Assembly (NCBI GenBank): GCA_029879825.1
Contig: JAOUPL010000001.1
Location: 1 to 38,271 of the forward strand
Reading direction: 5' to 3'
From: Candidatus Bathyarchaeota archaeon
GTDB taxonomy: Archaea > Thermoproteota > Bathyarchaeia > Bathyarchaeales > Bathyarchaeaceae
DNA: 38,271 nucleotides
Shown here: positions 127 to 38,271 of the stretch, one piece after another
How the letters are laid out: every line of letters starts with the position of its first letter
How positions within the stretch are numbered: position 1 is the first letter of the stretch
Made by a program: the position numbers and the translations under genes
The notes under the pieces: generated by a model
What the model was told of the DNA's origin: nothing
Databases searched by the model: none
The model's input: only the letters and a program-made list of their open reading frames with translations

Positions 127-269
127 CATTAAAAAGCAAAATTCTAAGATAAGCGACTAGCTTAGCATCGCAGCCACATGTAATTTTGTATCTTTAGCTT
201 TTAAAAAACCTTTAAAAGCGAGGTTTAGTAATGCAGAGGGGAGTTTTTGTGTTGTATGGGTGAGGGAAA

Positions 270-11719: not shown

Positions 11720-12038
11720 GGCGGCGGGTCTTAGGCGGGGGGCTAGGGGTCCCCTGAACCGTAAACCCTCTATAGGACGGGCTGAGAGCCTTGGCGAGGC
11801 GTCAAAGATCGTCAGGATTCCCCAGTCCTCTAACCTTGACTATCCGTCCCTTGGGGCTGGCGGTCGTGGAGCAACCTTCGTAGGGAGGCTGTGGACCGCG
11901 TTTGCCAGGCGAACCTGGCCAGGCCCGGGAGGGAGCAACCTAAGCTTGGACGTTCAGCGCTTGAGGGGTTGCGGGTACGAGTAAAGAGGTTGAGGAAACT
12001 GGCGAAAACTGGGTTTCGAACCAAGGTGACTCGCCGCC
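11720..12038 (+). ncRNA. Signal recognition particle 7S RNA
   Basis: About 319 nt and GC-rich. The termini pair (GGCGGCGGGTC / GACTCGCCGCC). Alu-domain-like GGGCTAGGGG near the 5' end. Helix-8 motif CCAGGCCCGGGAGGGAGCAACC. ORFs on both strands here are GC artefacts. Confidence 0.8.
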
Positions 12039-12545: not shown

Positions 12546-13496
12546 CTATGGCACCTCCAAAAAAATATGGAGTTCTTGTAGCATTTGGCACGGTTTGCAA
12601 ATTTCTCCGACAGTTGGTTCTCCACATTTTCCGCAGTTCTGTAACTTTGCTTTTTCTGCCATAGCTTCCAACGCTGGTCTAATCCTTTCTACGGATCTGA
12701 AGATGGCGAATTTTGTTCCAGCGTGCTTTTCTTCCATGCGGTTGAGCATGGCCCGTATGTCGTTTCTTAGGGCGGTTTGGGCGTAGGGGCAGGGAATGCC
12801 CTGAAACTCGATTCTTCTCAGGTATGCGTAGAAAGCGATTTCTTTTTCCGGCACTTCGCAGAGTGGTTTCACGCGCTGTACAAGTTTTGGATGGATCACT
12901 GTTAACACAGGCTTGACGCGCGCTATCCGTAGGGCATCGCCGTGAATAATGTTGAGAAGCATGGTTTGGGTTTCGTCGTCGAGACTGTGGGCTGTGGCAA
13001 GCTTGTCCACGCCTGCTTCTCGAGCCGCTGTGTTTAGGGCTCTTCTCCTCAGCACCCCGCAATAGGAGCAAGGTGTTAGGCCCTTTTCTTTCCTCTCTCG
13101 AATCATGTTTACGATTTCGTCTAACGTGTGACCGTACATTCCCTTGAAGGAAGTCACTACGTGTTTTACGCCAAGCTTTTGACAATTTTTCATGGCGATT
13201 TTTAGAGCCTCATCTCTATAGCCCTTTATTCCTTCATCAACTGTGACGGCACTCAGAGCTGCGTCTGGGAAGGCTTTTTCAATCCTTGTCAGTATGTGGA
13301 GGAGAGTTACGCTGTCTTTCCCGCCAGACACGGCCACCATGATTTTGTCTTTCGGTTCAAACATCTCGTACTTAGAAATCGTTCCTCGCACTTTGTTTTC
13401 TACAGATTTGCAAAAGCATCTTCCACAAAGTTTCTCCCCTGAGTAACGACGCATGAAAACAGCTTCTTTCTTCTTACATAAGGTGCACATTACCAT
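12546..13496 (-). CDS. tRNA 2-thiolation PP-loop ATPase (TtuA/Ncs6 family)
   Basis: PP-loop SGGKDS, N- and C-terminal CxxC zinc fingers, CSYCGVLRR, GHSLDDE. Confidence 0.8.
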   Translation of the reverse strand: MVMCTLCKKKEAVFMRRYSGEKLCGRCFCKSVENKVRGTISKYEMFEPKDKIMVAVSGGKDSVTLLHILTRIEKAFPDAALSAVTVDEGIKGYRDEALKIAMKNCQKLGVKHVVTSFKGMYGHTLDEIVNMIRERKEKGLTPCSYCGVLRRRALNTAAREAGVDKLATAHSLDDETQTMLLNIIHGDALRIARVKPVLTVIHPKLVQRVKPLCEVPEKEIAFYAYLRRIEFQGIPCPYAQTALRNDIRAMLNRMEEKHAGTKFAIFRSVERIRPALEAMAEKAKLQNCGKCGEPTVGEICKPCQMLQELHIFLEVP

Positions 13497-21049: not shown

Positions 21050-22167
21050 CTACCTTGTTACCTCTATCTCCATCATTTTTTCTAACAGTTGTGGGTGCCT
21101 ATGGAAATGTTCTCTAACTGGCTTCAGAATTTCGATGAGGGCTTCTGTGACGCCGTTTTTTAGGTCTAGCGGATGGATTTTGCCTTCGACATAGGCTCTT
21201 TCCATTTTCTCATAGTTTTCGAAGTTTTCTGGGCCTCCGTATTTGGTTGGTCTCGGTATCTCTAGATTTTCTCTTTCGGCGAACACTACATATTTTGATA
21301 GTTCAAGTATGGGGTTTCCTTTCACCTGTTTGGGGGGGCAGTAGGCTTCTTTTATTTTGGTCTTTATGTCGTCGGGGGTGTCGTGGACGAATATGCAACT
21401 CTTGGGTATGCTTTTGGACATTTTTGAGCTGATCTGTATGTTTAGGTCCGCGTTTTCGTCAAATTCTTTTTCAACTGTTTCGGGTCCTTGGAGTCCCATG
21501 AGGAGATGGGTGTGGACGCACGAGGGTTTTTTCCAGCCGAGTTTTTCAGCTACGTCTCTTGCCAGCATGTGAGCCTTTCTTTGGTCTATGCCTGCGCAGG
21601 CTACGTCAAGGTCCATGTGAAAAATGTCTGCCGACTGCATACAGGGATAGTATACCCACGCCGTTTCGACGTCGGTCATGCTCATTTCACGACCCATAAT
21701 TGGTAAGGCGCGCCACGTTCTCTGCAGCGAAGCGCCTTTCGCTATTCGAATGACTTTTTCCCAGTATTCTATGTCTTTGGCTATGTCTGAAGCCCAGAGG
21801 TATTCCACGCTGACCGGTGTTACTCCGAGGGCTGTAAAGCATTGTTTTATGTATTCGCCGCAGGTATGGATTTTTTCCATGTCTCCGCCTAGTTTGTTGT
21901 TTATCCATGAGTGCCAGTCAGCGAGAAAGACGATGAAATGGAAGCCAGCTTTTGTCATGTCTTTGATTTTGGATGTGCAGACTAGGCCCATTCCGATGTG
22001 CATTATTCTGGGTGACCGTGAAGGTTCACGGCTCACTGTCCAGAGCACTCGAAGCCCCAGTAGGCTCTGGGCTTAGTCTTTGTTTCCAGTAATGTGCGGA
22101 TTTCTTGGGGAATTATGATTTCTTCTACGTTTCTTGTGACAAGGTCTATTCTTTGTTCTAAATCCAA
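21050..22167 (-). CDS. tyrS: Tyrosyl-tRNA synthetase, interrupted by a 32-nt intervening sequence
   Basis: Exon 1 (22167..22038, TTG start) encodes MDLEQRIDLV...KPRAYWGFECSG and then a stop. Track ORF 21050..22048 continues in another frame with MHIGMGLV...FLADWHSWINNKLGG...KMSKS...LHPLDLKN. Removing 22006..22037 restores one 361-codon frame. Confidence 0.8.
22006..22037 (-). other. Candidate BHB (bulge-helix-bulge) intron within tyrS mRNA
   Basis: RNA: CUGG(ACA)GUGAgCCGUGAAccUUCACGGUCAC-CCAG(AAU). This is a 4-bp helix flanked by two 3-nt bulges plus an inner hairpin. Excision of 32 nt is in frame. Confidence 0.55.
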
Positions 22168-22512: not shown

Positions 22513-24180
22513 TTAGCGTGTTGTTTTTATGATTCTTTGCAGGTCTATTTCGAAGGCGCTTGTTGGATTTTCTAGTTCAAAATTGTTGAGAACCTCTGGG
22601 TGGATTTCTCCTACAACGCCGATCTTTCTGCCTTTAACATAGATCGCAGCCGCTCTCCCCTGCAAGAAACTTGGATGCTTAGTCCCTTTGATCTCCCAGT
22701 TTTTCAAGTCGAGATTGGCGAGCAAAGCTTCCACGTAAGACTTTATCTCAGTGAAGTTGGCTGTTGGGTGGGAGGAGACGCATGCTACGTGAAGCCTTCG
22801 TTCTGTGCGGGTTTCAGCCTTCTCGTTGATTTCTATCACGTCGGAAACTTCGAACATTCGTTGGGGATATGCTTGGTGTTTGTTGTCTGCCAGATTCTTC
22901 ATCAAGCGGGGCAACAAATCGTTTCGAACTATGGAATACTCTGTGGAAACGGGGTTCGCCAGCCTAATCATCTTTCCAGCCTTCCTTCTCATTTTTTGAT
23001 AGTGGTCAACCTCGTTGGCGAGAATGAAGTTCATAGCTTCCACGAAGCCTAGTCCAACCATTATTTGTCGAACGTAATTCGCCACTGCACTCACTTCGTG
23101 TTCTCTGCCCGTTGTCACAGTCGTCGGCTTCGTGGGTTTCAGTCTAAAATAGCCGTAGCCGATGGCAACCTCCTCAACCAAGTCAATTTCATGCATTATA
23201 TCAATTCGATAGGCGGGAATCAGAACCTCCAAAACTCCTTTGCTTATCCTTCTTGCGTCAAGTCTAGACTTCTGGAGGGCTTGTATAGTTTTGGTTTCTG
23301 AAAGCTTGAGACCCAACAACGCGTTGGCATAGTCAACCCTCAACTCCATCTGCTGAGGCGTCAAGTCAGGAGTAACTAAGACGTGATCAGAGTATCCAAC
23401 GCGAACACTTTCTATGGTTGCGCCCATGTCTGCCAACGCTGTGACCAAAACGTTCAAGCTTCTTGAAATGGCGTTAGGCTCCGTACCAGTCACATCGATG
23501 AACAGGTTTCGCGTTCGACTGTCCACCCGTGTCAGTTCGCCATTGATTATCGGGGGAAAAGAGAGAACCCGCCCCAACTTGTCCACGATTAGGGGATACC
23601 TTGAGGCCCAATCCACGTGACCTTTATACGCGATTCCCTTCTCATGCTTCTCCAGAATTTCTTGCAGAGTCATCTCTTCGGTCTTGTCTAAGGGGACAAA
23701 TTTGACTTCATTTGGGGCGCTGGTTGTGTAAGCGAAGGGAGGTTCAACAGCGTCTAAGTTGTGCACTCCGATAGAAGCTTTTTTCCGGTCCCTGCCCACC
23801 CCCCAGTGAAGATCCTCCTGCATCTCCATAAGTTCTCTAACAGTATCATAGTCAAGCTTCACGTTGCGTATAACAGCGGATACGACGTAGGGCCTAACCT
23901 CAGCCACCGTTGGATCCACTTTCAAAACAATTTTTCCTTCCTTCACCTCGTACTTCGGCAGTCCAGTCTCCCAACCCATCAGTCCACGGAAAGCTCTGGC
24001 CACTCCACCGTAGCTTGAAAAGTCCACACGGTTTGGGTTAAACTCGATTTTCACGTAGTCTGGTCCGATTTCGTCTGTGTCAACGCCCAGCCAAGGAAGC
24101 CATTTAGCCATCTCTTCTACACTAAGGGGCCGCCCGACGAACGAGGAGAAGCGGTCTCTGTCTAGAGTTAACGCTGGCAT
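22513..24180 (-). CDS. pheT: Phenylalanyl-tRNA synthetase beta subunit
   Basis: 555 aa with archaeal-type B3/4 and B5 domain layout. Overlaps the pheS stop by 13 nt. Confidence 0.9.
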   Translation of the reverse strand: MPALTLDRDRFSSFVGRPLSVEEMAKWLPWLGVDTDEIGPDYVKIEFNPNRVDFSSYGGVARAFRGLMGWETGLPKYEVKEGKIVLKVDPTVAEVRPYVVSAVIRNVKLDYDTVRELMEMQEDLHWGVGRDRKKASIGVHNLDAVEPPFAYTTSAPNEVKFVPLDKTEEMTLQEILEKHEKGIAYKGHVDWASRYPLIVDKLGRVLSFPPIINGELTRVDSRTRNLFIDVTGTEPNAISRSLNVLVTALADMGATIESVRVGYSDHVLVTPDLTPQQMELRVDYANALLGLKLSETKTIQALQKSRLDARRISKGVLEVLIPAYRIDIMHEIDLVEEVAIGYGYFRLKPTKPTTVTTGREHEVSAVANYVRQIMVGLGFVEAMNFILANEVDHYQKMRRKAGKMIRLANPVSTEYSIVRNDLLPRLMKNLADNKHQAYPQRMFEVSDVIEINEKAETRTERRLHVACVSSHPTANFTEIKSYVEALLANLDLKNWEIKGTKHPSFLQGRAAAIYVKGRKIGVVGEIHPEVLNNFELENPTSAFEIDLQRIIKTTR

Positions 24181-25679
24181 ACCGGGGTCCTCCTCATCCA
24201 GCCCAGATCGTTTTTGTACAAGAGCCGTATGTCTTCAATGCCAAGCTTGAGAATTATCAGGCGTTCCAAGCCTCCTCCCCAGGCTAAAACTGGATATTTT
24301 ATGCCAAGGGGAGCCAAAACTTCTGGGCGAAAGATGCCCATTCCACAGAGTTCCACCCAAGTTTTGAGCTCTGGAACGTAAACCGTGGACTGCATTGAAG
24401 GCTCCGTGTACGGGAAGTAGCTGGGCCAAAACTGCACTTTTTTCAATCCAAGTTTAAGGTAGAACTCCTTCAAAGTTCCCATCAAGTCTCGCAGGGTCAC
24501 CTTTTTGTCCATGACTATTCCTTCAATCTGATGGAATTCCGCGAGGTGTTTGTAGTCTACCTTCTCGTTGCGGTAGACACGGTCCACGGAAAAAACCTTC
24601 ACCGGCGGCTCCTTATGCTCAGCGAGGTAGCGGATGGTCACCGCGGTTGTGTGGGTCCTCAGTATCAGCCTCTTCGCCTCGTCAGCACTCCAAGTGTACT
24701 CCCAACCTCTCGAACCCGTTATCCAACCGTCTTCATGGGTTTTCGCCACCGCATCCACAACATCTTTTTTGGGCAGTTTTCCCTTTCTTGGCTGCGCCAG
24801 ATAGAAAGTGTCCATCATCTCCCTAGCCGGATGATCTTGAGGTTGGAACAAGGCATCGAAGTTCCAGAAGGCTGTTTCAACGATGGAGCCTCGAATTTCT
24901 GTGAAGCCCATCTCTAGGAAAATTTCCCTAACCCTCTGGATTATCTGCTGTGCTGGATGAATTTTTCCAGGATGAATTATTGGACCAGGCGCGGTTACGT
25001 CAAACCGTCTGAGTTTTGCCTTTCGCCATCTCCCTGTTCGGATGAGCTCAGGAGTTAGTTGACTGACTTCCTCAACGATTTCTATTCCTTTCTCAGCCAA
25101 GTCCCAGCCGGCATCCGTTAATTCCAGTTCACGCAGGGTTTTCTTACTCACCTTCACAAGTCTTCGTTTTTTTAGAAGGGAAACAGCCTTTTGCAGTTCT
25201 TGGCTCAAATCCTCAACAATTAAAGGTTCCTTTTCAGCTAGGAGAGATAGAAGTTTTTCGTCATTTCCAGTCAGCGGTTCCCTCAAGGATTTCAGTACAC
25301 GTTCCTTTTTCTTTATGGTCGCCCAGTCCTTACGGCTAAGCCACCCCAAGGCTATGGTTAAGAACTTCTTTTCTAACCCTGCAGCATCAGCAACATCGTC
25401 AACAGAAGCCTCGCCGCCCAACTTGATCAACGAGTTGATTAAACGTCTTTCGGGAAGCCTTTTTTTCGCGTGATAACTTCCCTCTTTAGTTAAAGCGATT
25501 GCGGTTTGCTTTCTTTCATGCGTTCTTACTAGTTTCTTTGTGGTAAGGGAGAGGGCAGCACGCATGACTGCTGCATGAGCTAGGCCACTAACCTTGACTA
25601 ACTGGTCGACGGGGCCTCTCCCCCTTAGCCTTTCCAAGGCAAGTAGGGTTTTTTGTTCGTTCTCTCGAAGTTCAGCCAC
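24168..25679 (-). CDS. pheS: Phenylalanyl-tRNA synthetase alpha subunit
   Basis: 503 aa. N-terminal wHTH repeats and class II core motifs (HPAREMMDTFY, FRNE-like YRNEKVD, GMGIFRPEV...AWGGGLERL). Confidence 0.9.
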   Translation of the reverse strand: MAELRENEQKTLLALERLRGRGPVDQLVKVSGLAHAAVMRAALSLTTKKLVRTHERKQTAIALTKEGSYHAKKRLPERRLINSLIKLGGEASVDDVADAAGLEKKFLTIALGWLSRKDWATIKKKERVLKSLREPLTGNDEKLLSLLAEKEPLIVEDLSQELQKAVSLLKKRRLVKVSKKTLRELELTDAGWDLAEKGIEIVEEVSQLTPELIRTGRWRKAKLRRFDVTAPGPIIHPGKIHPAQQIIQRVREIFLEMGFTEIRGSIVETAFWNFDALFQPQDHPAREMMDTFYLAQPRKGKLPKKDVVDAVAKTHEDGWITGSRGWEYTWSADEAKRLILRTHTTAVTIRYLAEHKEPPVKVFSVDRVYRNEKVDYKHLAEFHQIEGIVMDKKVTLRDLMGTLKEFYLKLGLKKVQFWPSYFPYTEPSMQSTVYVPELKTWVELCGMGIFRPEVLAPLGIKYPVLAWGGGLERLIILKLGIEDIRLLYKNDLGWMRRTPVCQR

Positions 25680-25893: not shown

Positions 25894-27021
25894 CTACGCG
25901 ACCTGCATTATTTCCCTTGCTTTGTCAACGAATTTTCGCCGTTTTCGTTTATGATCCTTCACGAAGTTTAGAACGAGTTCTGTCGTCTTAGCTTTATGTT
26001 CTCCGCACAAGAGTTTCCCGCTTTTACAATCGTTGTAAACCTTCACAACGTCGTCGTCTTTTTCGACAAAATGGTACATTTCAATCTCGTATATGGGACA
26101 AATCTCCGGCACTCCGCCCAGTCTCCTCTGCTCTTCCACGGTGGGCCGTCCGCCGGTGAAGGCGTTTGAAATTTTCTTTGCTATAGATTCGGGGTTTTCG
26201 TGTAAAGTGAAGTAGCTCATGGAGTTTCGTTTAGCCATTTTTGGAGAACCGTCCAATCCCTTCATGATTTTGTGGTAGGTGGAGGAAGGTGAAACAAAAT
26301 TGAACTTGCGGCGAAACTTGCTGGCGAGGTCCCGAGTTAAACGTAGGTGGGCGTCTTGGTCAATACCTACAGGGACGACTGTTGGTTTTGGTCCGTCAAA
26401 ATCTTCGAGTTGAGGCATCAGTATGTCTCCCGCCTGTACGAGGGCGGACAAGTAGAGTCCAATGTTCCGTTCACCGTAGATGGCTTTCATTGTAGCCAGA
26501 GTTACGCTTCTTCCAAAAAGAACTGCTAAGTCTCTAACCCGCTGTTCCTTATACTGTCGATAAATGAAGCCACGCTTCGGGTCGAATCCTAGGGCGAGTA
26601 AATCTGCAACGTTGCCTGCAGCAATTTTTTCGCTTTTTTCGAAGGGGATTTTGTTGTCTTCGTAGGCTTCGATGTCTGCGATACAGTAGAAGGCAGTGGC
26701 TCCCTGTTGTTGGAAATAGATGATTTCCCGGGCGGTCATGAGGGTTCCTAAGTGAAACTCTCCTGTTGGTTTGATGCCACTCATTACTGCAAACTTTTCG
26801 TGGCTTTTCATATTTTCTAAGACGCTTTCGAAATCTCTGTGTCCGAAGATGACGCCGCGCCTCATATACATGCTTGGGTTCGGTATCTCCGCCAAAAGAG
26901 ATTTAAATCGCTGTATCCCGAACTCTTCGCAGAGGCGGTTGTAGTCCTCAACTACCGTTGTTCCCCAAGGGTCAAGCACCGTTTTCCTGTTACCAGCCGT
27001 CGACAACTTTTGACGTCCCAC
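25894..27021 (-). CDS. trpS: Tryptophanyl-tRNA synthetase (archaeal/eukaryal type)
   Basis: LDPWG...YNRLCEEFGI N-terminus, GIKPTGEFHLGT (HIGH region), GIDQDAHLRLTRD, KMAKRN in the KMSKS position. Confidence 0.85.
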   Translation of the reverse strand: MGRQKLSTAGNRKTVLDPWGTTVVEDYNRLCEEFGIQRFKSLLAEIPNPSMYMRRGVIFGHRDFESVLENMKSHEKFAVMSGIKPTGEFHLGTLMTAREIIYFQQQGATAFYCIADIEAYEDNKIPFEKSEKIAAGNVADLLALGFDPKRGFIYRQYKEQRVRDLAVLFGRSVTLATMKAIYGERNIGLYLSALVQAGDILMPQLEDFDGPKPTVVPVGIDQDAHLRLTRDLASKFRRKFNFVSPSSTYHKIMKGLDGSPKMAKRNSMSYFTLHENPESIAKKISNAFTGGRPTVEEQRRLGGVPEICPIYEIEMYHFVEKDDDVVKVYNDCKSGKLLCGEHKAKTTELVLNFVKDHKRKRRKFVDKAREIMQVA

Positions 27022-31163: not shown

Positions 31164-31288
31164 GGGGTTGCCAGCTTTCCCGACTTCGCGTGGCCGAAGA
31201 CCACACTAACACCGGAAACGGAGCGCGGTTTAACTTCTGAGTTCGGAATGGGATCAGGTGGGTCCCGCGCCCTATGGCCGGCAACCCC
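31164..31288 (-). rRNA. 5S ribosomal RNA (stand-alone)
   Basis: The reverse strand reads GGGGTTGCCGGCCATAGGGCGCGGGACCCACCTGATCCCATTCCGAACTCAGAAGTTAAACCGCGC...GCTGGCAACCCC. The termini pair. 125 nt. Confidence 0.85.
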
Positions 31289-31344
31289 AATAACTTCGTC
31301 AATCTTTCGTTCATTAAGTTTTCGCTTTAGTCCTGCGAGAAACG

Positions 31345-31354
31345 TATATATTTA
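31345..31354 (+). promoter_or_regulatory. TATA-like box for tRNA-Trp
   Basis: TATATATTTA lies 23-32 nt upstream of the tRNA 5' end at 31377. Confidence 0.4.
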
Positions 31355-31376: not shown

Positions 31377-31599
31377 GGGGCCGTAGTCTAGCTACGCCTC
31401 GTCATCTGATGAGGCGCTGGAAAGGGATGACGACAGTTGATGCGAAGTAGTGTCAACCGTTAAGGGCTCCAGAACAGAATTCACGGGTTTGCTGACCGTG
31501 TCGGGATGAAGAAATTCTGGAGCGGTGAAGAAACCCGTAGGAACGGGGATGAACTGTTCCGGGTAAAGGTCGTCGGTTCAAATCCGGCCGGCCCCACCA
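31377..31599 (+). tRNA. tRNA-Trp (anticodon CCA) with encoded CCA and about four intervening sequences
   Basis: Acceptor GGGGCCG/CGGCCCC, A73, CCA. T arm GTCGG-TTCAAAT-CCGGC. Anticodon loop CTCCAG|A at 31467-31472 + 31533. The stem AC..GGG/CCCGT needs removal of about 31435-31463. Other inserts lie at about 31393-31417 (D loop hairpin), 31473-31532 (37/38) and about 31540-31567 (variable loop). Exons sum to about 78 nt. Confidence 0.65.
31473..31532 (+). ncRNA. Box C/D-like guide element inside the tRNA-Trp 37/38 intron
   Basis: The order is a 12-nt guide, D' CUGA (31492-95), C' AUGAAGA (31506-12), a 12-nt guide, then D-like GUGA (31525-28). The fifth guide nt upstream of D pairs with C34. 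The fifth upstream of D' pairs with nt 39. Box C is degenerate. Confidence 0.5.
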
Positions 31600-32495
31600 C
31601 AAGCCGAACCGGCCCCGCCCGCGCGAAGATCTTCGGCACACTGTGGGAGCTGAAGAAGCGGGGCTACTGCGACATCACCTTGAAGACGAAAGGCGAACGC
31701 CTGAGGTTTCTGGCAAGGCACGTGGACCTGGATGACCCGGAGGCTGTGAAAGGGTTCATCGCAGAACAAACAAGCTGGTCCAATGGCTACAAACAGAGCG
31801 TAGCATACGCTTACGACAACTATGTGAAAACCAACGGCTTGCATTGGACTCTGCCACACTTCCGAGTGGAAGATAAACTGCCCAAGATTCCAACCGAGGA
31901 AAAAATCAACCAGATAATCGTAAGGGCCAGAGGCAAATATGTCCTGGTTTTCAGCATCCTCCGGGACACCGGCATGAGGCCCATCGAACTCGAAAGGACC
32001 AAAGTTAGAGACATAGACTTGGATACAGGAGTTATCACCGTCCGCACGGCGAAAGGCGGCTTAGGACGATCACTGAAGGTGAAGACGCAGACGCTGGCCA
32101 TGCTGAAGGAATACCTCGGGAAGCACGGCTTCGGGCTGAACGACCAGCCTTTTCCGAAGAGGAAGAAGATGACGGGGCGCTGGGTCAGGCTGAGGAACAC
32201 GGTCGCGGGGAAGCTGAAGGACGCCTCTTTCAGGGCGATCAGGCTCTACGACCTGAGGCACTTCGTCGGGACGACGACCTACCACAGGACCAAGGACATA
32301 GTCTACACCCAGAGGGTGCTGGGGCACAGGAGCCTGAAGAACACGATGAGGTATGTCCAACTGATAGACTTTGAAGAAGATGAGTTTACTTCTGCGGTAG
32401 CTAGGAACTTACAGGAAGCTTGCCAACTGATAGAAGTTGGCTTCGAATACGTAACAGAAATAGACGGTGCAAAACTATTCAGGAAAAGAAAGTAG
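31506..32495 (+). CDS. Tyrosine recombinase / integrase (probably the C-terminal part of an SSV-type integrase)
   Basis: Catalytic pattern TGMRPIEL (R), TAKGG (K), LYDLRHF (RH), LGHRS (H), MRYV (Y). The frame is open from 31464 through the tRNA 3' exon. The track ATG at 31506 sits inside the tRNA intron. The first start after the tRNA is TTG at 31680. Confidence 0.75.
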   Translation: MKKFWSGEETRRNGDELFRVKVVGSNPAGPTTSRTGPARAKIFGTLWELKKRGYCDITLKTKGERLRFLARHVDLDDPEAVKGFIAEQTSWSNGYKQSVAYAYDNYVKTNGLHWTLPHFRVEDKLPKIPTEEKINQIIVRARGKYVLVFSILRDTGMRPIELERTKVRDIDLDTGVITVRTAKGGLGRSLKVKTQTLAMLKEYLGKHGFGLNDQPFPKRKKMTGRWVRLRNTVAGKLKDASFRAIRLYDLRHFVGTTTYHRTKDIVYTQRVLGHRSLKNTMRYVQLIDFEEDEFTSAVARNLQEACQLIEVGFEYVTEIDGAKLFRKRK

Positions 32496-32509
32496 CTTTG
32501 TGCACCTAC

Positions 32510-32522
32510 CATGCATGCATGC
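32510..32522. repeat. CATGCATGCATGC alternating Pu/Py repeat, copy 1
   Basis: Exact 13-mer, repeated at 33526-33538. Shorter versions occur at 32738-32750 and 33710-33721. Confidence 0.8.
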
Positions 32523-32735
32523 GATTCGCATACGCCCTGCCCGGTTTCTTCCCGCCCCCCTGCGCAGGACTTAGTTAGAGCAAATAACATGTTAACGCGC
32601 ACGCGATGCAAACAGTTGGAGAGCTTTTTGAAAACCTAGGGGAAAAACCAGGGAGCTAAGTGAAAACATCGACCTGTATCACAAACTGATACTCTCAAGA
32701 ATGAAACCTACGAAAGACGAGTAATATCCAGTTCT

Positions 32736-33482
32736 GTGCGCATGCATGCAAAAAACGACTTGCGCGCGTGTATGAAACAAGAAAACGTTTGTATACCACC
32801 TGTTGAAACATTGTTATATAGTCAGGTGATTTTATTGGCTGAAAAATGGGATGGAGTGGCATTTCTGAAAAATCGTATTGAAGCAATAGACCAACAATGG
32901 GTTGAAAATGTTCGGAAGACCAAATTCTTTCGAGTGGGTGCCTTTAATCTTCCCCACATGGAACCACAATTGAGACAGGTATATATGGATACTTATTTTA
33001 TCACAATGATGGGTTTTTGGAATGTTTCCATAATAATGCAAGGTGTGTTGTTGGAAACTTTGGTCAAAGAGATAATATTTGCAAAAGAGAAGAAAGAGTT
33101 CCAAAAGCCTTTTGGTGACGCCATTGATAGGTGTGAAAAGAAAGGTTACCTAAGCGATGAAGAGATCAGATTTTTGAGGCGATTCAAGGACGAGATTAGG
33201 AACCCCTATCAACATGTAGATGTCAAGAAGATAGTTGGAGAAAGCAAAGTTCGTGCATGGAAGATCTCGCTTAAAAAGGGCAAAGTAGCGGAGTCATTAC
33301 TTAAAGGGGTCGAAAAAGTGTTTAGAGAAGATGCTGGCCATGGCGAGTTGAAAGGTTATGAAGATATGAGACCCGTTGGAGTAGTCATTAAAGATGAGAT
33401 TGACAGACGATTGGCATTGCCTCTTTTCGGTCAAGTTGAAAAATTAGTTAGAAGTTTGTCAACAAAACATTTCAAGGTATAA
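32736..33482 (+). CDS. Hypothetical protein (weak DUF4145-like C-terminal motif)
   Basis: 248-aa ORF; the real start is probably ATG 32772. FLRRFKDEIRNPYQH resembles the RN..H signature of DUF4145, from memory only. Confidence 0.4.
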   Translation: MRMHAKNDLRACMKQENVCIPPVETLLYSQVILLAEKWDGVAFLKNRIEAIDQQWVENVRKTKFFRVGAFNLPHMEPQLRQVYMDTYFITMMGFWNVSIIMQGVLLETLVKEIIFAKEKKEFQKPFGDAIDRCEKKGYLSDEEIRFLRRFKDEIRNPYQHVDVKKIVGESKVRAWKISLKKGKVAESLLKGVEKVFREDAGHGELKGYEDMRPVGVVIKDEIDRRLALPLFGQVEKLVRSLSTKHFKV

Positions 33483-33525
33483 CAAGGCGCGCGCGTTAGA
33501 CTCACTTTCCTTTGTCCCAGTAATT

Positions 33526-33538
33526 CATGCATGCATGC
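33526..33538. repeat. CATGCATGCATGC alternating Pu/Py repeat, copy 2
   Basis: Identical to 32510-32522. The two copies flank ORF 32736..33482. Confidence 0.8.
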
Positions 33539-33806
33539 TTGCTATATCCACACAAAGTTCACACGAAACCCTTCCAGACCCCCGCACACAAACCTTCATG
33601 TTGACAAACCTAGTGGTAATCTTTTCTATTGTTAGTCTAGCTTTTCTTTTTGCGTCAAGAACAGAATTTGCATCGCATGTGCAAGAATTGTGCTAGAAGC
33701 ACGCCTAATCATGCATGCGCGAACGACACATTATAATTTATAATACTTTTTCTAAATTCACAAACTATATTTCTAATTTCTTGAATATTCCAGAAAGGTT
33801 GAGCAA

Positions 33807-34214
33807 TTGAGACTATCAGAATTTATGCACATGCATAAAGGCGTAATCATCGTTCTCGGATTAATCATCGTTGTGGCAGTTGGATACATCGCAGTTAATC
33901 CCAATATAATTGGATTACCTACGCAAATAAGAATCATGGACGGAACTTGGGAAGATATAACCTTTCATGGACACGAATATCGGATTCTAGTAGAAAAAAG
34001 TGAACCAGTTACGTTTGCTAATTTTTCTTCAAGTAATTCTTCTTCATGGATTTTGTATATTTTCCTTACTGAAGGCTGGGATTTCCCAAGAATTGGAGAT
34101 GGAACATATCCAAATATCAAAGAAGGAGACATTATCTTCTACAAAGGTGTGAACATTAAAGTCAACAATATCGATGACTATAGTGTAACATTGTTGGTTA
34201 GTTGGGGAGAATGA
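33807..34214 (+). CDS. Small membrane-anchored / secreted hypothetical protein
   Basis: N-terminal TM helix GVIIVLGLIIVVAVGYIAV. Likely ATG at 33825. Confidence 0.4.
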   Translation: MRLSEFMHMHKGVIIVLGLIIVVAVGYIAVNPNIIGLPTQIRIMDGTWEDITFHGHEYRILVEKSEPVTFANFSSSNSSSWILYIFLTEGWDFPRIGDGTYPNIKEGDIIFYKGVNIKVNNIDDYSVTLLVSWGE

Positions 34215-34257
34215 TGTTTCGCGTGCGTCTTTCCATTAACCGTTAACCGTTGTCCGT

Positions 34258-34276
34258 GGTGGTGGTGGGTGGTGGG
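34258..34276 (+). repeat. (GGT)n G-rich tract
   Basis: GGTGGTGGTGGGTGGTGGG, preceded by tandem TTAACCG x2 at 34236-34249. Confidence 0.7.
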
Positions 34277-34645
34277 TCAAATTTTAACCGCCAAAAGCGT
34301 GCGCTCAGGAGTTAGCCACAGCCCGCAACCAACACACTCGTAAACTCCCGGGGTGCCTCGGACCCAGCCCGCTGTATTTTGGGATGTTGCCCAAGGGTGT
34401 CTGCGGGTTCCGCGTGGAGGGATATACCTGCAGACACATCAACAATGGTAGTTGCATTGAGTCAAATTTCCGGGGAAAACAGCATTAAGTAAAATGGGGG
34501 CCCCAAACTAGAAACCAAATGGAAAGGCCGCGGATTTTGACGCGCGCGCACACGCGAAACAGCTAAAGTGCCCACTTAGATAATTTAATAAATACTTGGA
34601 AATAAGTAGCATTTGTAGTTTAGACGTGTAGGTTGGTCTTGGGTT

Positions 34646-35284
34646 TTGGTCGAAGAAGCTCTTGTTTTTTGGGTCGGAGCGGCGATATTCGGATTCACCT
34701 CATTGATGTTTGCTGCATTAGAAAAGCGAGGACATGGTGGCGAAATGGTTTTCGGATCCAATATCTTTGTAAGTTTTATCACAACGATCTCGTACGTAGT
34801 CATGGCTTTGGCGTTAGGTACTACAATTGCAGAGAATGGACAACCAATCTATTGGACAAGATGGCTTTTCTACATCGCCAGTTGTAGCATACTAACCCTG
34901 GACATCGCCTTCATCGCACGAAAGCCAGCTTCCAAAAAGGTTGAAGTCGCGTTATTCACTGGACTTACAATGTTCTGCGGTTTCTTGGCAAGCATAATTG
35001 TCACGGCTGATCGTTGGTGGTTCTTTGCTCTAAGTACGGCCGCTTATTTCGGCGTGCTCTACACACTATCTAAACGATTAGGAGATGAGAGCGTCAACGT
35101 AACCTCCATAATGTGGTTTGTGATGGTAACTTGGTCTCTGTTTCCAGTAGTTTGGGTGCTTGCGCCAACTGGCTTTGGAGTTCTCACGACATTTGTTGAG
35201 GCTATACTCTATCTTGCACTCGACCTAATAACCAAGGTAGCTTTCGGCTTGTATATTTCAGCACGACAGGACATTGGCAAGTAA
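34646..35284 (+). CDS. Type-1 microbial rhodopsin, schizorhodopsin-like (F-S-D motif)
   Basis: Seven TM segments. PIYWTRWLFYIASCSILTLD aligns to bacteriorhodopsin PIYWARYADWLFTTPLLLLD. WSLFPVVW aligns to WSAYPVVW. LDLITKVAFG aligns to LDVSAKVGFG, giving the Schiff-base Lys with Asp at K-4. TTG start. Confidence 0.8.
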   Translation: MVEEALVFWVGAAIFGFTSLMFAALEKRGHGGEMVFGSNIFVSFITTISYVVMALALGTTIAENGQPIYWTRWLFYIASCSILTLDIAFIARKPASKKVEVALFTGLTMFCGFLASIIVTADRWWFFALSTAAYFGVLYTLSKRLGDESVNVTSIMWFVMVTWSLFPVVWVLAPTGFGVLTTFVEAILYLALDLITKVAFGLYISARQDIGK

Positions 35285-35403
35285 CAATCATAATCAAGCG
35301 CGCGCATGAATACTGTGCAAGTTTAGCATCCGACCTACATCGCTAAAATACATCTTGCTAGTAACCAAAACACAGTTATAACCTCTGCATTCTACATTAC
35401 TTT

Positions 35404-35919
35404 ATGGTCAAAGAAGTGAAATATAGCCTCATCAAAAAACTAGACAATGTGGAAATCAGGCTCTACAACAGCTTGATAATCGCCAAAGTTGACGGTTATG
35501 GTGATGCAGGCTTTAACCTTCTCTTCAACTATATCACAGGCAACAATACTCAAAAAACCACTTTAGAAATGACTTCACCCGTAATATCACAAAACATTGA
35601 AATGACTGCTCCCGTCCTATCAGAAAAAGACTCGATAGCATTCGTTATGCCTGAAAAATACACCTTGGAAACAACACCAAAACCTAATGATGAACGAATC
35701 AAAATCCAACAAATCCCAGAAAGATATGTAGCCGCACTAAGATTCAGCGGTCGCTGGACACCTTCAAATTTCGCAAAAAAATCAAAACAACTATTAAAAG
35801 AACTACAAACAGCAAAAATAAAAACAAGAGGAAACATTTTTGCAATGCGTTACAGCGGACCCTTCACACCATGGTTCATGCGGAAAAACGAAGTAGCAAC
35901 AGAAGTCCAACTCACCTAG
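35404..35919 (+). CDS. SOUL haem-binding family protein
   Basis: VEIRLY..., GFNLLFNYITGNN...LEMTSPV...IEMTAPV, and RFSG pattern. 171 aa. Confidence 0.75.
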   Translation: MVKEVKYSLIKKLDNVEIRLYNSLIIAKVDGYGDAGFNLLFNYITGNNTQKTTLEMTSPVISQNIEMTAPVLSEKDSIAFVMPEKYTLETTPKPNDERIKIQQIPERYVAALRFSGRWTPSNFAKKSKQLLKELQTAKIKTRGNIFAMRYSGPFTPWFMRKNEVATEVQLT

Positions 35920-36112
35920 AACTCTATACCTGCGCGTTCGATTTGGGTATGTGTGGGTGGTTAATTTTCAATCACTTACACTAGCTGGCATGCGTACGCA
36001 GGGCTGAAAAAACATATTGGTAGCGCGCACTTTTCTTGAACACAAGTATCTTAGCGATACTGTGCATGCAGATCGCAAGTCATAAAAGCAGTCTCATACA
36101 GACTTTAGGAAC

Positions 36113-36937
36113 ATGAATAGAACAGAAAGATTAGAGAATATTGCGAAATCACCGATTTCATTTGGCTATCTTAGAAAGTTCAACATGGGAGCAGGCATTC
36201 TTCATTTTGCTCAAGGAATAGTTATGGTAGCTCTTGGGCTTTCTAAAGCCTACAACCGTGACATATTCACTTTCTATTTGAAGTTCAACATAGTGAGCAC
36301 TGACCCGCCCGTTATCCAAGTTGGGCCAGACCCTAAAATCCTGCTGACAATAGGCTACATAGGAGTCGTGGCCGCTCTCTTTCCCCTAATCTCTGCAATA
36401 GCACATTTCACAATCGCGTTTGCGAAGAACAATGCCTACAATGAAAATCTGAAAAAGGGCATGAACCCATACAGATGGTACGAATATGCCCTTTCAAGCT
36501 CAATAATGATATTCCTCATCGCTTCGTTCGTAGGAGTGTGGGAGCTATGGTCACTCGTGATGATATTTGTCTTGAACGCAATGATGATAATGTTCGGATA
36601 TCTTATGGAGAAAATCAATCAGTACACTGAAAAGACTGATTGGTCATCATTCATCCTTGGATGCATTTCAGGCGGAACACCCTGGATAGCGATATACGCT
36701 TATTTCATCGCAGCCATAAGCAGCGTGTCGCAGAACGTTCCCACATTTGTGTACCTGATACTGTTCATCTACTTCATTCTGTTCAACATCTTCGCAGTCA
36801 ACATGGTGTTGCAATACAAAGGCATCGGAAGGTGGAAGGATTACCTTTACGGCGAAAGAATCTACATAATCCTGAGCTTCGTTGCAAAAAGCATTCTGGC
36901 TTGGCTGGTATTCGTAGGAATCTATGCACCTTTCTAG
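36113..36937 (+). CDS. Heliorhodopsin
   Basis: Closely parallels my recollection of HeR 48C12. NPYRWYEYALSSSIMIFLIA matches NIFRWVEYSLSSSVMIVLIA. LQYKGIGRWKDYLYGERIYIILSFVAKSILAW matches LQYKGKGKWSNYLRGERAYIVLSLVAKSALAW, with the Schiff-base Lys and Glu counterion present. Confidence 0.85.
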   Translation: MNRTERLENIAKSPISFGYLRKFNMGAGILHFAQGIVMVALGLSKAYNRDIFTFYLKFNIVSTDPPVIQVGPDPKILLTIGYIGVVAALFPLISAIAHFTIAFAKNNAYNENLKKGMNPYRWYEYALSSSIMIFLIASFVGVWELWSLVMIFVLNAMMIMFGYLMEKINQYTEKTDWSSFILGCISGGTPWIAIYAYFIAAISSVSQNVPTFVYLILFIYFILFNIFAVNMVLQYKGIGRWKDYLYGERIYIILSFVAKSILAWLVFVGIYAPF

Positions 36938-37122
36938 CAGGCGTACGTACTCCTCAAATCAGACTGTTCCAGTATGCTTGTGAGAGATAGTATAGGTTAC
37001 TATCTGCAAGCACACACATGCGCGCGTGCTAGGTGTATGAATTGTAGGCGGAAGAAAAATATTAAAAGAAATATCACCGACCTACGATTATTACGACTGG
37101 ATTATGAGTGTGATAAAATCAA

Positions 37123-37809
37123 ATGGCAAGCGGTTCGCTCGAATTTCGGGCAACAAACCTTGATTGCCTTTTGGCTCTTGTGATCGCATTCGGCCTACCC
37201 GTGGCGTGCGGGCTCCTGTACCCACTGACGGGCGCACTTGTCCCTCTAACACTGTATTATGGCTTGTGCTGCGTAGGCATCGTGAAGTGGCGGCGTGGAA
37301 CACTTGAGTATCGTCGTCCGAAGACTTGGGCCTTCCCCATTTTTCTGACGATGATCGCAATGCAGCTGATCCAACAGATCATTGGTTTTGTGCTAGTGCA
37401 ACCTGTGCCAAGCCCCGACGCAGTCGGAGTGCTCATCTCCCTTATTGTTTGGGCACCACTCAATGCTTTAATGGAGCAGTTGAGTTGGATCTACTGCTAC
37501 GATGCATTCGCCTCACGCTTCACTAAGAAGAGCCAGAGAATAGTGGGGAACATCGTCGGCCTCGTGTTGATGCTATCTCTAGTTGGACTTATCCATGTGC
37601 TCTTCTGGGCGAAATTCACGCCAGCATATTCACCGATCGGTAGCTTCTTCTTAGTTTTCATGGCCCTGCAATTCGTAACCACCGGTCTCTACATCATGCT
37701 GTATCGAAAAGTCCGCTCCATGATCCCTCTGGCATTAGTTCACATCATATCTGATGCGGGCTTGGTTCTCATTCCAGGATTCTCAATCTTCCCGTACCTT
37801 CTGCCATAG
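37123..37809 (+). CDS. Polytopic membrane protein, degenerate CPBP (CAAX protease)-like
   Basis: At least 6 TM segments. Motif-like MEQLSW (versus EExxxR), VGLIH (FxxxH) and HIISD (HxxxD). The first motif lacks the second Glu and the Arg. Confidence 0.3.
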   Translation: MASGSLEFRATNLDCLLALVIAFGLPVACGLLYPLTGALVPLTLYYGLCCVGIVKWRRGTLEYRRPKTWAFPIFLTMIAMQLIQQIIGFVLVQPVPSPDAVGVLISLIVWAPLNALMEQLSWIYCYDAFASRFTKKSQRIVGNIVGLVLMLSLVGLIHVLFWAKFTPAYSPIGSFFLVFMALQFVTTGLYIMLYRKVRSMIPLALVHIISDAGLVLIPGFSIFPYLLP

Positions 37810-37820
37810 GAACAATCGAG

Positions 37821-38137
37821 CTAGCTAGCTATAACTTGCGCGCGCAGCACGTAGTTCGGGTCCTTGCGCGAGAGGAACCTCCTGACGTGCTCGTATTCGC
37901 GCGCCATGAACTTCCTCAGCCTCGGCACTATCACTCGACTCTCCCCCCTTCCAGCCAATTGCCGCGTTCGTCCGGACGCTCCGACTGCTCCAACTTCTTT
38001 CCATTTTTTAAAAAGTTTTTTTCAGGACTACTCTTAGTTGTAGAATTTTTCATTTCCGTATCACAGTTGGAGCGCTTAAGGTCTATGTTCTCCCATACGC
38101 CGATCCGCTTCCCGTCCACGCGCGCTTTTGGACACAT
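37821..38137 (-). pseudogene. Frameshifted or phase-variable small ORF (unknown function)
   Basis: The 68-aa ORF 37931..38137 ends just after a G6 run (plus-strand C6 at 37943-37948). One extra G would extend it by 37 codons to the stop at 37821-37823. Confidence 0.25.
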
Positions 38138-38147
38138 ATTGTATTGA

Positions 38148-38261
38148 CTAACCAGGTATTTCTGGGAAAAGGATTTTCTTTGTGGGAGCTCTGCAATTAG
38201 GGCACTCTTGCCTATTCACATTGTAAAGGGTCTTACAATATGGACATTCGATTCTGGTCAT
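38148..38261 (-). CDS. Possible 37-aa zinc-ribbon peptide
   Basis: MTRIECPYCKTLYNVNRQECPNCRAP... has CxxC...CxxC. It is below the track threshold and close to the window edge. Confidence 0.3.
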   Translation of the reverse strand: MTRIECPYCKTLYNVNRQECPNCRAPTKKILFPEIPG

Positions 38262-38271
38262 CTCATTGAAA

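Follow-up and report, generated by a model that had tools for sequence, protein, structure and literature searches.

We found that positions 31377-31599 on the forward strand of the window, the 38,271-nt stretch of DNA analyzed here, hold a Bathyarchaeia gene for tRNA-Trp(CCA), interrupted by four bulge-helix-bulge (BHB) introns and with a precursor of about 223 nt. Excision of 31394-31422, 31435-31463, 31473-31532 and 31539-31566 leaves a clean 77-nt cloverleaf, and ARAGORN reads the spliced sequence as tRNA-Trp(cca), 77 bases, with an acceptor stem of 7 bp, an anticodon stem of 5 bp and a T stem of 5 bp. The results below establish the gene structure, the intron borders, the covariation of the BHB motifs and the conservation of the guides and K-turn. 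We think it probable that the gene is functional, that its four introns are spliced and that the third of them guides methylation of both C34 and C39. The parts of the gene are as follows (an arrow marks the cut within a bulge).

31343-31354, forward strand: CGTATATATTTA, a putative promoter element of the archaeal TATA type that lies about 23-34 nt before tRNA position 1 (direct reading).
31377-31393, forward strand: exon 1, tRNA positions 1-17, with GGGGCCG, U8 A9, D-stem 5' strand GUCU and D-loop start AGCU (ARAGORN on the spliced product).
31394-31422, forward strand: intron 1, 29 nt, in the D loop, with a 4-bp central helix CUAG/CUGG, 5' bulge CU↓A and 3' bulge AA↓A (top match of the BHB scan).
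31423-31434, forward strand: exon 2, the remaining D loop AGGGA, D-stem 3' strand UGAC, G26, A27 and C28 (ARAGORN and homologs).
31435-31463, forward strand: intron 2, 29 nt, at 28/29 in the 5' strand of the anticodon stem, with central helix GACG/CGUU, 5' bulge AC↓A and 3' bulge AA↓G.
31464-31472, forward strand: exon 3, G29 G30 G31 and the anticodon-loop nucleotides C32 U33 C34 C35 A36 G37 (direct reading and ARAGORN).
31473-31532, forward strand: intron 3, 60 nt, at the canonical 37/38 site, with central helix CUCC/GAAG and bulges AG↓A and AA↓A (direct reading).
31533-31538, forward strand: exon 4, A38 and the anticodon-stem 3' strand C39-U43 (direct reading and ARAGORN).
31539-31566, forward strand: intron 4, 28 nt, at the junction of anticodon stem and variable loop, with central helix ACCC/GGGU (from A38-C41) and bulges GU↓A and AA↓A.
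31567-31599, forward strand: exon 5, variable loop AGGUC, T arm, acceptor 3' strand, discriminator A73 and encoded CCA (direct reading and ARAGORN).

The gene thus starts at 31377 with the acceptor 5' strand GGGGCCG and ends at 31599 with the T arm, the acceptor 3' strand and CCA. The upstream element CGTATATATTTA may act as its promoter; AAAC(G/C)TATATAT occurs at an equal upstream distance in four homologs (L021, L027, L024 and L014). As to the presumed charging by TrpRS, the tRNA has A73 and the pair G1-C72, and a trpS gene is located at 25894-27021. No endonuclease gene turned up in the scanned ORFs of the window. Directly adjacent to the tRNA-Trp gene, on its 3' side, is an integrase gene; no direct repeat of the tRNA 3' end, such as an attachment site would leave, was seen downstream within the window.

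Standard finders miss or miscall genes of this kind. Plain ARAGORN on the raw window missed the tRNA-Trp gene, its sole call being a tRNA-Pro at 52-127. Run in intron mode, it reported a tRNA-Pro(AGG) with a 135-nt intron, a miscall of the precursor, which reads as tRNA-Trp(CCA) once the four segments are removed. Rfam returned nothing at the tRNA-Trp locus at gathering thresholds, and a permissive scan gave only subthreshold C/D matches and spurious tmRNA-type matches to the T arm. RF01297 (sR40, the Pyrococcus tRNA-Trp intron family) matched 31465-31525 with 13.9 bits (E = 2.6) and did not reach its gathering score of 50; the stretch common to sR40 and intron 3 is CGGGUUUGCUGACC. Since such genes escape standard finders, genome bins of Bathyarchaeia may be described as lacking tRNA-Trp. 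A purpose-written BHB scan performed differently: its top matches were the three noncanonical introns 1, 2 and 4, with central helices of 4/4 pairs and inner helices of 9, 8 and 7 bp. The minimum-free-energy fold of the naked precursor recovered the inner hairpins and paired the D' guide in cis, and it contained none of the 4-bp central helices; hence, this fold is uninformative on the splice sites.

We compared the gene with 112 distinct pre-tRNA-Trp sequences, labeled Bathyarchaeia wherever the record names the organism. Membership in the homolog sets required this gene's anticodon-stem sequence together with an intron of 41-71 nt. The genome scan imposed the D' guide in its pattern, and a second, exon-anchored scan is therefore the sole independent evidence for that guide. 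Exons are conserved throughout, and introns recur at the same positions, with some, all or none of the window's introns present in a given homolog: 12 genes have one intron, 64 have two, 19 have three and 17 have four. Presence or absence at the same sites is the strongest test of an intron short of RNA data, and the set did contain insertion-free alleles with the same exons as well as compensatory changes in the helices. The earlier note had singled out the finding of both guides in a multi-intron gene. In this lineage the combination is not rare: 17 of the 112 homologs have four introns, and the guides are present in essentially all.

The introns conform to the BHB pattern of a 4-bp central helix with 3-nt bulges on opposite strands and cuts two nt into the bulge. 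Introns 1, 2 and 4 have central helices of 4/4 pairs with 3-nt 5' bulges, and these hairpin mini-introns share one design: each begins with an A, continues with an inner helix of 7-9 uninterrupted pairs and one 4-nt strand of the central helix, and ends in AA. They do not have the strict hBHBh' form, in which outer and inner helices are each at least 2 bp; their outer helices are 1, 1 and 0 bp, respectively, and they are therefore classed as relaxed HBh'. Only intron 3 has both helices, the inner one of 2 bp and the outer one being the anticodon stem. Its central helix in the window has 3/4 pairs, with C34 opposite A, and in most homologs GGAG gives a perfect 4 bp.

Intron 2 has the inner helix GUUGA/UCAAC (8 contiguous pairs in the BHB scan), and its site is either filled or empty in homologs, with unrelated inner sequences of 23-45 nt. 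The inner helix of intron 4 is GGAAC/GUUCC (7 contiguous pairs), and an outer helix is absent. We placed intron 4 at 43/44 by the BHB rule; by sequence alone, any position from 43/44 to 46/47 yields the identical product. It is found in 85 of the 112 homologs at a length of 27-40 nt, its central helix has at least 3/4 pairs in 83 of these 85, and its inner helix covaries. Rereading the sequence gave the same borders that had been drawn earlier for the segments at 28/29 (29 nt), at 37/38 (60 nt) and in the variable region (28 nt).

The D-loop segment had also been recognized correctly as an intron; its length had been given as about 25 nt, and this must be revised to 29 nt, with CUGGAA belonging to the intron. 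Intron 1 consists of an A, a 9-bp hairpin and CUGGAA, with inner helix CGCCUCGUC/GAUGAGGCG and an outer helix of only 1 bp. It is missing from many homologs that have the same exons, and exon 1 recurs with the same or almost the same sequence in 25 intron-less 5' halves. In an alignment of 16 sequences, 92.8% of the cells of this intron were paired, compared with 26-46% in slid controls, and compensatory changes were seen in 6 of the 9 pairs of the inner helix. A parse in which GGAU is the D-stem 3' strand and intron 2 spans 56-87 is contradicted by the intron-less L024.

Could the exon structure nevertheless be right as first drawn, with a 25-nt D-loop intron and AGCCUGGAAAGGGAU as the D loop? 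CUGG does resemble the usual G18-G19 context of archaeal D loops, and the hairpin by itself measures about 22-25 nt. However, no intron-less homolog has AGCCUGGAAAGGGAU: their D loops take the form AGCCAGGGAU, and the corrected borders give AGCUAGGGAU. The 4-bp helix CUAG/CUGG with its bulges sets the cuts between 31393 and 31394 and between 31422 and 31423, CU(A/G)G with a bulge GAA or GAG is kept as the intron end in the 16 aligned homologs, and ARAGORN folds the product of the earlier borders only if an artificial 3-nt intron is invented for it. The 25-nt version is close to untenable. A broader doubt is whether what mimics a multi-intron tRNA here is a tRNA pseudogene in decay or a chimera of the assembly, as the silence of standard ARAGORN, its intron-mode tRNA-Pro with a 135-nt intron and the integrase gene at the 3' end might suggest. 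Against this, four independent metagenome contigs have the identical sequence, the exons form a perfect cloverleaf, and these exons are retained across over 100 distinct homologs whose introns vary and show compensatory changes. Also conserved are the promoter element and, in 68 loci, synteny with the 5S rRNA gene; for Bathyarchaeia 5S rRNA genes, a putative insertion at nt 44/45 is a side lead. We regard a pseudogene or chimera as very improbable and proceed with a genuine four-intron gene.

Intron 3 contains two candidate methylation guides arranged around one K-turn. Its elements are as follows.

31480-31491, forward strand: D' guide UUCACGGGUUUG, 12 nt, pairing over 8 bp with AAACCCGU (31531-31538) across the 3' splice junction.
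31492-31495, forward strand: box D' CUGA; homologs have C(U/G/A)GA, with GA invariant.
31496-31504, forward strand: stem-loop CCG-UGU-CGG that closes the D'/C' K-turn and covaries in homologs.
31506-31512, forward strand: box C' AUGAAGA, with G31508-A31509 opposite G31494-A31495 of D' for tandem sheared pairs.
31513-31524, forward strand: D guide AAUUCUGGAGCG, 12 nt between C' and GUGA, pairing over 9 bp with GCUCCAGAA (31466-31474) across the 5' splice junction.
31525-31528, forward strand: degenerate D-like box GUGA, overlapping the 3' strand GAAG (31527-31530) of the intron 3 central helix.

Both guides have a 12-nt spacer and place their target at the fifth nucleotide (N+5). Counting five nucleotides upstream from D' leads to G31487, whose partner is C39 (C31534); the same count from GUGA leads to G31520, which pairs with C34 (31469). 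We could thus retrace in the window every element that had been proposed for the C34 guide (AUGAAGA, exactly 12 nt and GUGA, 9 bp, the fifth nucleotide on C34) and likewise for the other guide (12 nt before CUGA, 8 bp at the 3' splice junction, the fifth nucleotide on position 39). The internal C'/D' K-turn reads CUGA - CCG UGU CGG - G AUGAAGA. In 20,000 shuffles of the intron core, counted before any register constraint was applied, a 9-nt match arose in 26, an 8-nt match in 143 and both together in none.

These elements are conserved. Box C' is AUGAAGA or AUGACGA in 109 of 111 homologs, although the search pattern did not demand it, and the C34 guide UUCUGGAGC(G/U), which was not imposed either, is present in 99 of the 111. 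Most homologs recovered with the exon-only pattern have the D' guide ACGGGUUU(G/A). The K-turn stem covaries (CCA/UGG, CCU/AGG, CUCGC/GCGAG and others, among 77 distinct linkers), and for two pairs of this stem RNAalifold counted 15 and 4 double-sided changes. For the C34 guide duplex, RNAalifold returned consensus pairs and one compensatory change at an intron position.

The outer boxes present another picture. At the place of box C (RUGAUGA, 12 nt upstream of D') the window has AACAGAA, and among 105 homologs the 7-mer at this canonical place is not conserved. The only recurrent GA in this upstream region of the 105 homologs is formed by exon nucleotide G37 and the first intron A, at variable distance. 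The D-like box is GUCA in 50 of 111 homologs, GUGA in 14, GUUA in 11, GUCU in 7 and AGGA in 6, with others making up the rest, and its GA is kept only in the window's subclade, as GUGA. A caveat about degenerate boxes had been raised before, and it proves to be stronger than stated: box C is unconserved in the lineage, and most relatives have a degenerate D-like box. The term "box C/D-type guides" therefore holds as a description and fails as a claim of full membership in the box C/D family.

Several substitutes for the missing motif were considered and set aside. The exon sequence AUGACGA (tRNA positions 21-27) as box C would form no flanking stem with the D-like box and lies at the wrong distance. 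In the window, G37 plus the first intron A could in principle form a K-turn with GUGA, but L027 and L038, the closest relatives, lack the next pair. A K-loop over the circularization junction would use G31477-A31478, a GA that is absent from L027, L038, L106 and L114. In relatives, GUCA can pair with the D-stem strand UGAC; this amounts to 4 nt only, does not occur in the window and was treated as chance. RNAalifold found no conserved pairing of the lead with the tail of intron 3 beyond the guide duplex and the K-turn stem.

Perhaps, then, the four introns are real and intron 3 is only half a guide, with methylation, at C39, directed by just the D' guide beside the intact K-turn. The element UUCUGGAGC would then be kept for another role, such as holding the anticodon loop to time formation of the BHB, and Cm34, if present, would be the work of a protein enzyme or of another guide RNA. 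Archaeal box C/D particles are reported to need both motifs for efficient methylation. The loss of box C, the lack of GA in the D-like boxes of most relatives (GUCA, GUUA and GUCU among them) and the competition of guide duplex and BHB central helix for nucleotides 32-35 all speak for such a limited role. However, nearly all homologs keep exactly 12 nt between C' and the D-like box and place C34 at N+5, Thermococci use the same register with a D box CUGA, and the window's own clade retains GA as GUGA. Moreover, S. acidocaldarius tRNA-Trp contains Cm34 (PMC7668247), and the related S. solfataricus intron, a 65-nt stable circle, is reported to lack consensus C and D boxes (PMC3326292). We judge the half-guide reading unlikely, if worth keeping in mind, and favor an intron that guides at both C34 and C39. 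C34 methylation is nevertheless the least secure part of this proposal because its box is degenerate and box C is absent.

We propose the following course of events. A precursor of about 223 nt would be transcribed from the TATA-type promoter, the archaeal tRNA splicing endonuclease would cut out the four introns at their BHB motifs, and ligation of the exons would yield the 77-nt tRNA. The central helices of introns 1, 2 and 4 would borrow nucleotides of the D stem and the anticodon stem, so the precursor must fold unlike the mature cloverleaf. The nearly absent outer helices (HBh') imply an endonuclease of broad specificity. Intron 3 would present one well-formed K-turn between two 12-nt guides that pair over both splice junctions. 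C39 on the D' guide and C34 on the D guide, each five nucleotides from a box, would sit at the 2'-O-methylation site of fibrillarin in an L7Ae-Nop5-fibrillarin particle. Transcription, endonuclease cleavage, assembly of this RNP and the methylations themselves are all predictions from the sequence.

Guide duplexes and splicing helices share exon nucleotides, namely 32-35 in the case of intron 3 and 38-41 in that of intron 4. Hence, methylation and splicing may represent alternative states of the precursor, or the excised intron may act in trans. An even more specific scheme is a single-K-turn guide RNA that obeys N+5 without a canonical C/D motif. The tetranucleotide that sets the register of the C34 guide would then be something other than a D box (most relatives have GUCA), and a second K-turn partner, if there is any, would be G37 with the first intron nucleotide, available in the unspliced precursor only. 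If this is true, overlap of the guide duplexes with the central helices of introns 3 and 4, together with the single K-turn, would impose an obligatory order on methylation of C34 and C39 and removal of the four introns. We hold this scheme to be doubtful.

The four-intron, guide-bearing gene is best seen as a well-supported, extreme case of two phenomena known in archaea. With respect to intron number, it resembles the multi-intron tRNA genes of Thermoproteales, in which noncanonical BHB introns of relaxed type likewise interrupt the D loop, the anticodon stem and the variable region; there too, short introns of similar kind are found at several positions, and a broad-specificity endonuclease is implied (PMC4033280, PMC4090602, PMC8450103). 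These belong to a different lineage, and the maximum given in reviews and in the tRNAscan-SE 2.0 paper is three introns per tRNA gene (PMC4033280, PMC4090602, PMC8450103), whereas this gene has four. Four introns in one tRNA gene, validated here by comparison, exceed that quoted maximum, although a four-intron tRNA-Trp of Atabeyarchaeia is already listed. This is the 231-nt tRNA-Trp(CCA) of Atabeyarchaeia-2, at coordinates 779842-780072, with three introns identified by tRNAscan-SE and the fourth by R2DT (Supplementary Data 4, PMC11291895). It is the same isoacceptor, with a near-equal precursor length, four introns and one of them starting about 16 nt into the gene; it comes from an Asgard archaeon and is known as a table row without guide analysis. 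In the Bathyarchaeia family itself, alleles have from one to four introns, spread over six positions, and could be used to study splicing order and the interplay of splicing with methylation.

The second phenomenon is the self-targeting guide intron of tRNA-Trp. The earlier note had called intron-guided Cm34/Um39 methylation established for euryarchaeal pre-tRNA-Trp, and the literature on Haloferax agrees (PMC4090602, PMC7714728). Compared with the introns of Haloferax volcanii and Pyrococcus (sR40, RF01297), intron 3 lies in the same tRNA at the same 37/38 site and has a similar length; its guides span both exon-intron junctions with C34 and position 39 at N+5, and guide duplexes and BHB are mutually exclusive. 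The retrieved Thermococci introns have exactly this D' guide, CGGGUUUG-CUGA. Those Thermococci tRNA-Trp introns, found in the same search, have recognizable C and D boxes, unlike intron 3, where box C is lacking and the terminal D box is a degenerate GUGA that overlaps the BHB helix. Position 39 is C rather than U, the sR40 score falls far short of its threshold, the host belongs to Bathyarchaeia (TACK/Thermoproteota), and the gene has three further introns. The self-targeting guide intron established in Euryarchaeota is conserved in a large uncultured TACK lineage. Within TACK, the Sulfolobus solfataricus tRNA-Trp intron, compared here by its description, is likewise complementary to the 34 and 39 regions without consensus C and D boxes. 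In contrast to that description, intron 3 retains a C'/D' K-turn of textbook form and spacers of exactly 12 nt, which places it between the euryarchaeal and Sulfolobus states. This intermediate form, with the C'/D' K-turn intact and the C/D motif lost, bears on the age of the arrangement and on how much box C/D architecture is needed for site selection.

The earlier note had assembled a tRNA-Trp(CCA) by removing four segments from the locus at 31377-31599. On rereading the window, we found its sequence statements correct throughout, and removal of four introns leaves a 77-nt product that ARAGORN folds regularly. Its shorter D-loop intron (about 25 nt) had to be revised to 29 nt, since ARAGORN otherwise needs an artificial 3-nt intron. 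ARAGORN identified the spliced product as tRNA-Trp(CCA), but it did not call the gene on the raw window sequence, and in intron mode it took the precursor, wrongly, for a tRNA-Pro(AGG) containing an intron of 135 nt. The four insertions were defined against a homologous locus, L024, which has the 37/38 intron only and whose 5' half reads GGGGCCGTAGTCTAGCCAGGGATGACGAC-GGGCTCCAG:

31394-31422, intron 1, 29 nt, D loop
31435-31463, intron 2, 29 nt, 28/29
31473-31532, intron 3, 60 nt, 37/38
31539-31566, intron 4, 28 nt, 43/44

A simple scanner for bulge-helix-bulge (BHB) motifs (central helix of 4 bp, 3-nt bulges each cut after the second nucleotide, inner helix required) returned as its best matches exactly the three non-canonical introns, 1, 2 and 4. 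Their central helices are all 4/4 and their inner helices 9, 8 and 7 bp. With outer helices of 1, 1 and 0 bp, these are relaxed HBh' motifs, which go with broad-specificity endonucleases (PMC4033280, PMC4090602). In intron 3 the anticodon stem serves as outer helix; the central helix of this intron, CUCC/GAAG, has one C-A mismatch and its inner helix is 2 bp. Among the matches listed, most relatives have GGAG, which makes this central helix perfect.

The window is of archaeal origin. Its ORFs include family B DNA polymerase, PheRS, TrpRS, pelota and DnaG primase, and it also carries the following genes:

52-127, plus strand, tRNA-Pro(CGG), intron-less
11722-12036, plus strand, archaeal SRP RNA
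12546-13496, minus strand, NcsA/TtuA-type tRNA thiolation gene
31166-31285, minus strand, 5S rRNA, uninterrupted

The TrpRS gene (25894-27021, minus strand) is 4.4 kb away from tRNA-Trp and belongs to a run of genes that also encodes PheRS alpha, PheRS beta and a second synthetase of class Ib (Trp/Tyr-type) (25894-27021, 24168-25679, 22513-24180 and 21050-22048, all minus strand). In the genome collection, the nearest relatives of the locus are MAGs labelled Bathyarchaeota/Bathyarchaeia; the homologous loci L021 and L027 are 84-95% identical across the tRNA gene and the region upstream of it, and four independent metagenome contigs match the region at 100% identity.

A scan for GCTCCAGA, gap, GGGTTTGCTGA, gap, T loop in one genome per species recovered 31 loci: single-intron Thermococci, many Bathyarchaeia and one Desulfurococcaceae MAG. 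Among the Bathyarchaeia genes the exons are those of the window, but the intron content varies. A second scan, of metagenome contigs with exon sequence as sole anchor (GGGCTCCAGA, 40-70 nt, GAAACCCGTAGG), gave at least 120 loci. Pooled, the two yield at least 112 distinct pre-tRNA-Trp sequences. Selection was by a single anticodon-stem sequence and by an intron 3 of 41-71 nt, and the set is not a census.

Introns per gene among the matches listed (n=112)
One intron: 12 distinct sequences
Two introns: 64 distinct sequences
Three introns: 19 distinct sequences
Four introns: 17 distinct sequences

Six intron positions occur among the matches listed (acceptor stem, D loop, 26/27, 28/29, 37/38 and 43/44). 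The window's set (D loop, 28/29, 37/38, 43/44) is found in 16 of these sequences, itself included; a single one, L063, combines acceptor stem, D loop, 37/38 and 43/44. This minus-strand, 239-nt pre-tRNA-Trp has an acceptor-stem insertion of about 45 nt (GGGGCC|G...GCC|GUAG region) with a central helix of 1/4 under the simple BHB rule and uncertain borders. When intron 1 was aligned (n=16), 92.8% of cells were paired, with both-side changes in 6 of 9 inner-helix pairs; sliding the partners by 1-3 columns dropped pairing to 26-46%. Intron 4, present in 85 of the 112 sequences listed, has conserved ends (AGGA... ...CCGGG(U/G)AA), a central helix of at least 3/4 in 83 of the 85, and inner helices that are variable yet paired.

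Both guides claimed for intron 3 are present in the window. Between AUGAAGA (31506-31512) and the GUGA downstream of it lie 12 nt, and in the 9-bp duplex of this guide C34 (31469) faces the fifth nucleotide upstream of GUGA. The D' guide, the 12 nt before CUGA (31492-31495), is UUCACGGGUUUG; in its 8-bp duplex, position 39 (C31534) likewise faces the fifth nucleotide upstream of CUGA. When the intron core was shuffled 20,000 times, with no register requirement imposed, the first match arose in 26 shuffles, the second in 143 and both in none.

Are these elements conserved? In the exon-anchored set, on which no intron-internal sequence was imposed, AUGAAGA or AUGACGA occurs in 109 of the 111 introns listed, and UUCUGGAGC(G/U) follows C' directly, in the same 12-nt frame, in 99 of 111. 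Most of the listed introns also carry ACGGGUUU(G/A) and, after it, C(U/G/A)GA. Covariation is seen in the short stem that links D' to C' (CCA/UGG, CCU/AGG, CUCGC/GCGAG and more), with 77 distinct linkers among the matches listed. In the window this motif, CUGA - CCG UGU CGG - G AUGAAGA, reads as a regular K-turn: a 3-bp stem, the 3-nt bulge GAU, tandem G-A/A-G, A-U and G-C.

The outer boxes are another matter, and the earlier note's caveats on boxes C and D were well placed. In the window the expected box C site reads AACAGAA, and no conservation of the 7-mer at that site was found in 105 homologs among the matches listed. GUGA stands at the D position in 14 listed sequences including the window; elsewhere we found GUCA (50 sequences), GUUA (11) and GUCU (7). 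Thermococci introns from the first scan, our positive control for boxes, have either GUGAAGA or AUGAGGA exactly 12 nt upstream of D', and their D position reads CUGA or CCGA. Against Rfam sR40, the Pyrococcus tRNA-Trp intron family, window intron 3 is a weak match, at 13.9 bits well under the gathering score of 50. The Desulfurococcaceae MAG locus, L012 (7740-7974), is a crenarchaeal tRNA-Trp whose D' guide, CGGGUUUG-CUGA, is the same as the window's; its D guide is GGUCUGGAAAAAUGAUCG after a C'-like GAUGACA, and a further intron lies at about 30/31 in the anticodon stem. Hence the guide-type intron is also present in Desulfurococcales.

Transcription would begin from a TATA-type element that appears conserved about 23-34 nt upstream in the window and homologs. 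In introns 1, 2 and 4 the central helices use C12-G15, G23-G26 and A38-C41; because these nucleotides are shared, the mature D and anticodon stems are barred while the three BHBs stand. The guide duplexes cross the intron 3 splice junctions and occupy nucleotides 31-37 and 38-43, which the anticodon stem also needs, as do the central helices of intron 3 and intron 4. Guided methylation and splicing are thus alternative states. As cited in PMC4090602 and PMC3326292, the same conflict is solved in Haloferax by the intron-encoded particle acting in trans. By analogy, the K-turn would recruit L7Ae, Nop5 and fibrillarin, and C39 and C34 would be 2'-O-methylated. Of the two putative targets C39 is the better supported, since its register is set by an intact D' box; C34 we infer from the conserved guide and its register. 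Cm34 is present in Sulfolobus acidocaldarius tRNA-Trp (PMC7668247), and the intron of the related S. solfataricus is reported to be without consensus boxes, yet complementary to both sites (PMC3326292); together these lend C34 further, indirect support.

Among the matches listed, tRNA-Trp has a 5S rRNA gene as its conserved neighbour in 68 loci. Four relatives carry a BHB-type insertion at one site in that 5S gene, between nucleotides 44 and 45 (...CCGAA / insert / CUCGGAAG...; homologous window site 31241/31242):

L021, 669-1082, 414 nt, 131-aa LAGLIDADG ORF
L094, about 778-1188, 411 nt, 131-aa LAGLIDADG ORF, read by eye
L083, about 452-479, minus strand, 28-nt hairpin
L097, about 5939-5966, minus strand, 28-nt hairpin

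The L021 ORF matches Pfam PF14528 (E = 3.6e-11). The 28-nt insertions (AAUAAGAGAUUUCGUCUCUUAUCGGCAA) have the A-hairpin-4 nt-AA design of the tRNA-Trp mini-introns. No account of an archaeal 5S rRNA intron came up in literature searches, and the insertion may therefore be new.

Downstream, homology to the relatives L027 and L038 ends at 31626, 27 nt past the tRNA. A tyrosine-recombinase ORF abuts the tRNA, followed by a strain-specific region:

31506-32495, plus strand, tyrosine recombinase (Pfam Phage_integrase, residues 136-286)
34646-35284, plus strand, bacteriorhodopsin-like protein
35404-35919, plus strand, SOUL haem-binding protein
36113-36937, plus strand, heliorhodopsin

The recombinase frame stays open back through the tRNA 3' half, and no obvious start codon was found past the tRNA, which is the pattern to expect when integration at a tRNA gene splits an integrase gene. 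We found no repeat of the tRNA 3' end further downstream within the window (31600-38271). Because they lie in the strain-specific region downstream of the integrase, the light-sensing genes may sit on an island inserted at tRNA-Trp.

The four-intron, guide-bearing gene is well supported; its component kinds are already known and the mechanism is not new. Literature searches found no publication on tRNA introns in Bathyarchaeia. Thermoproteales are well known for tRNAs with several introns, three being the stated maximum (PMC4033280, PMC8450103), and a supplementary table of an Asgard study includes a 231-nt Atabeyarchaeia tRNA-Trp with four (PMC11291895). The finding has value for annotation and provides a natural series of intron alleles. 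As the earlier note held, intron-guided tRNA-Trp methylation is established in Euryarchaeota. The Sulfolobus intron extends a box-poor form of it to Crenarchaeota. Window intron 3, from Bathyarchaeia, is a form intermediate between the two.
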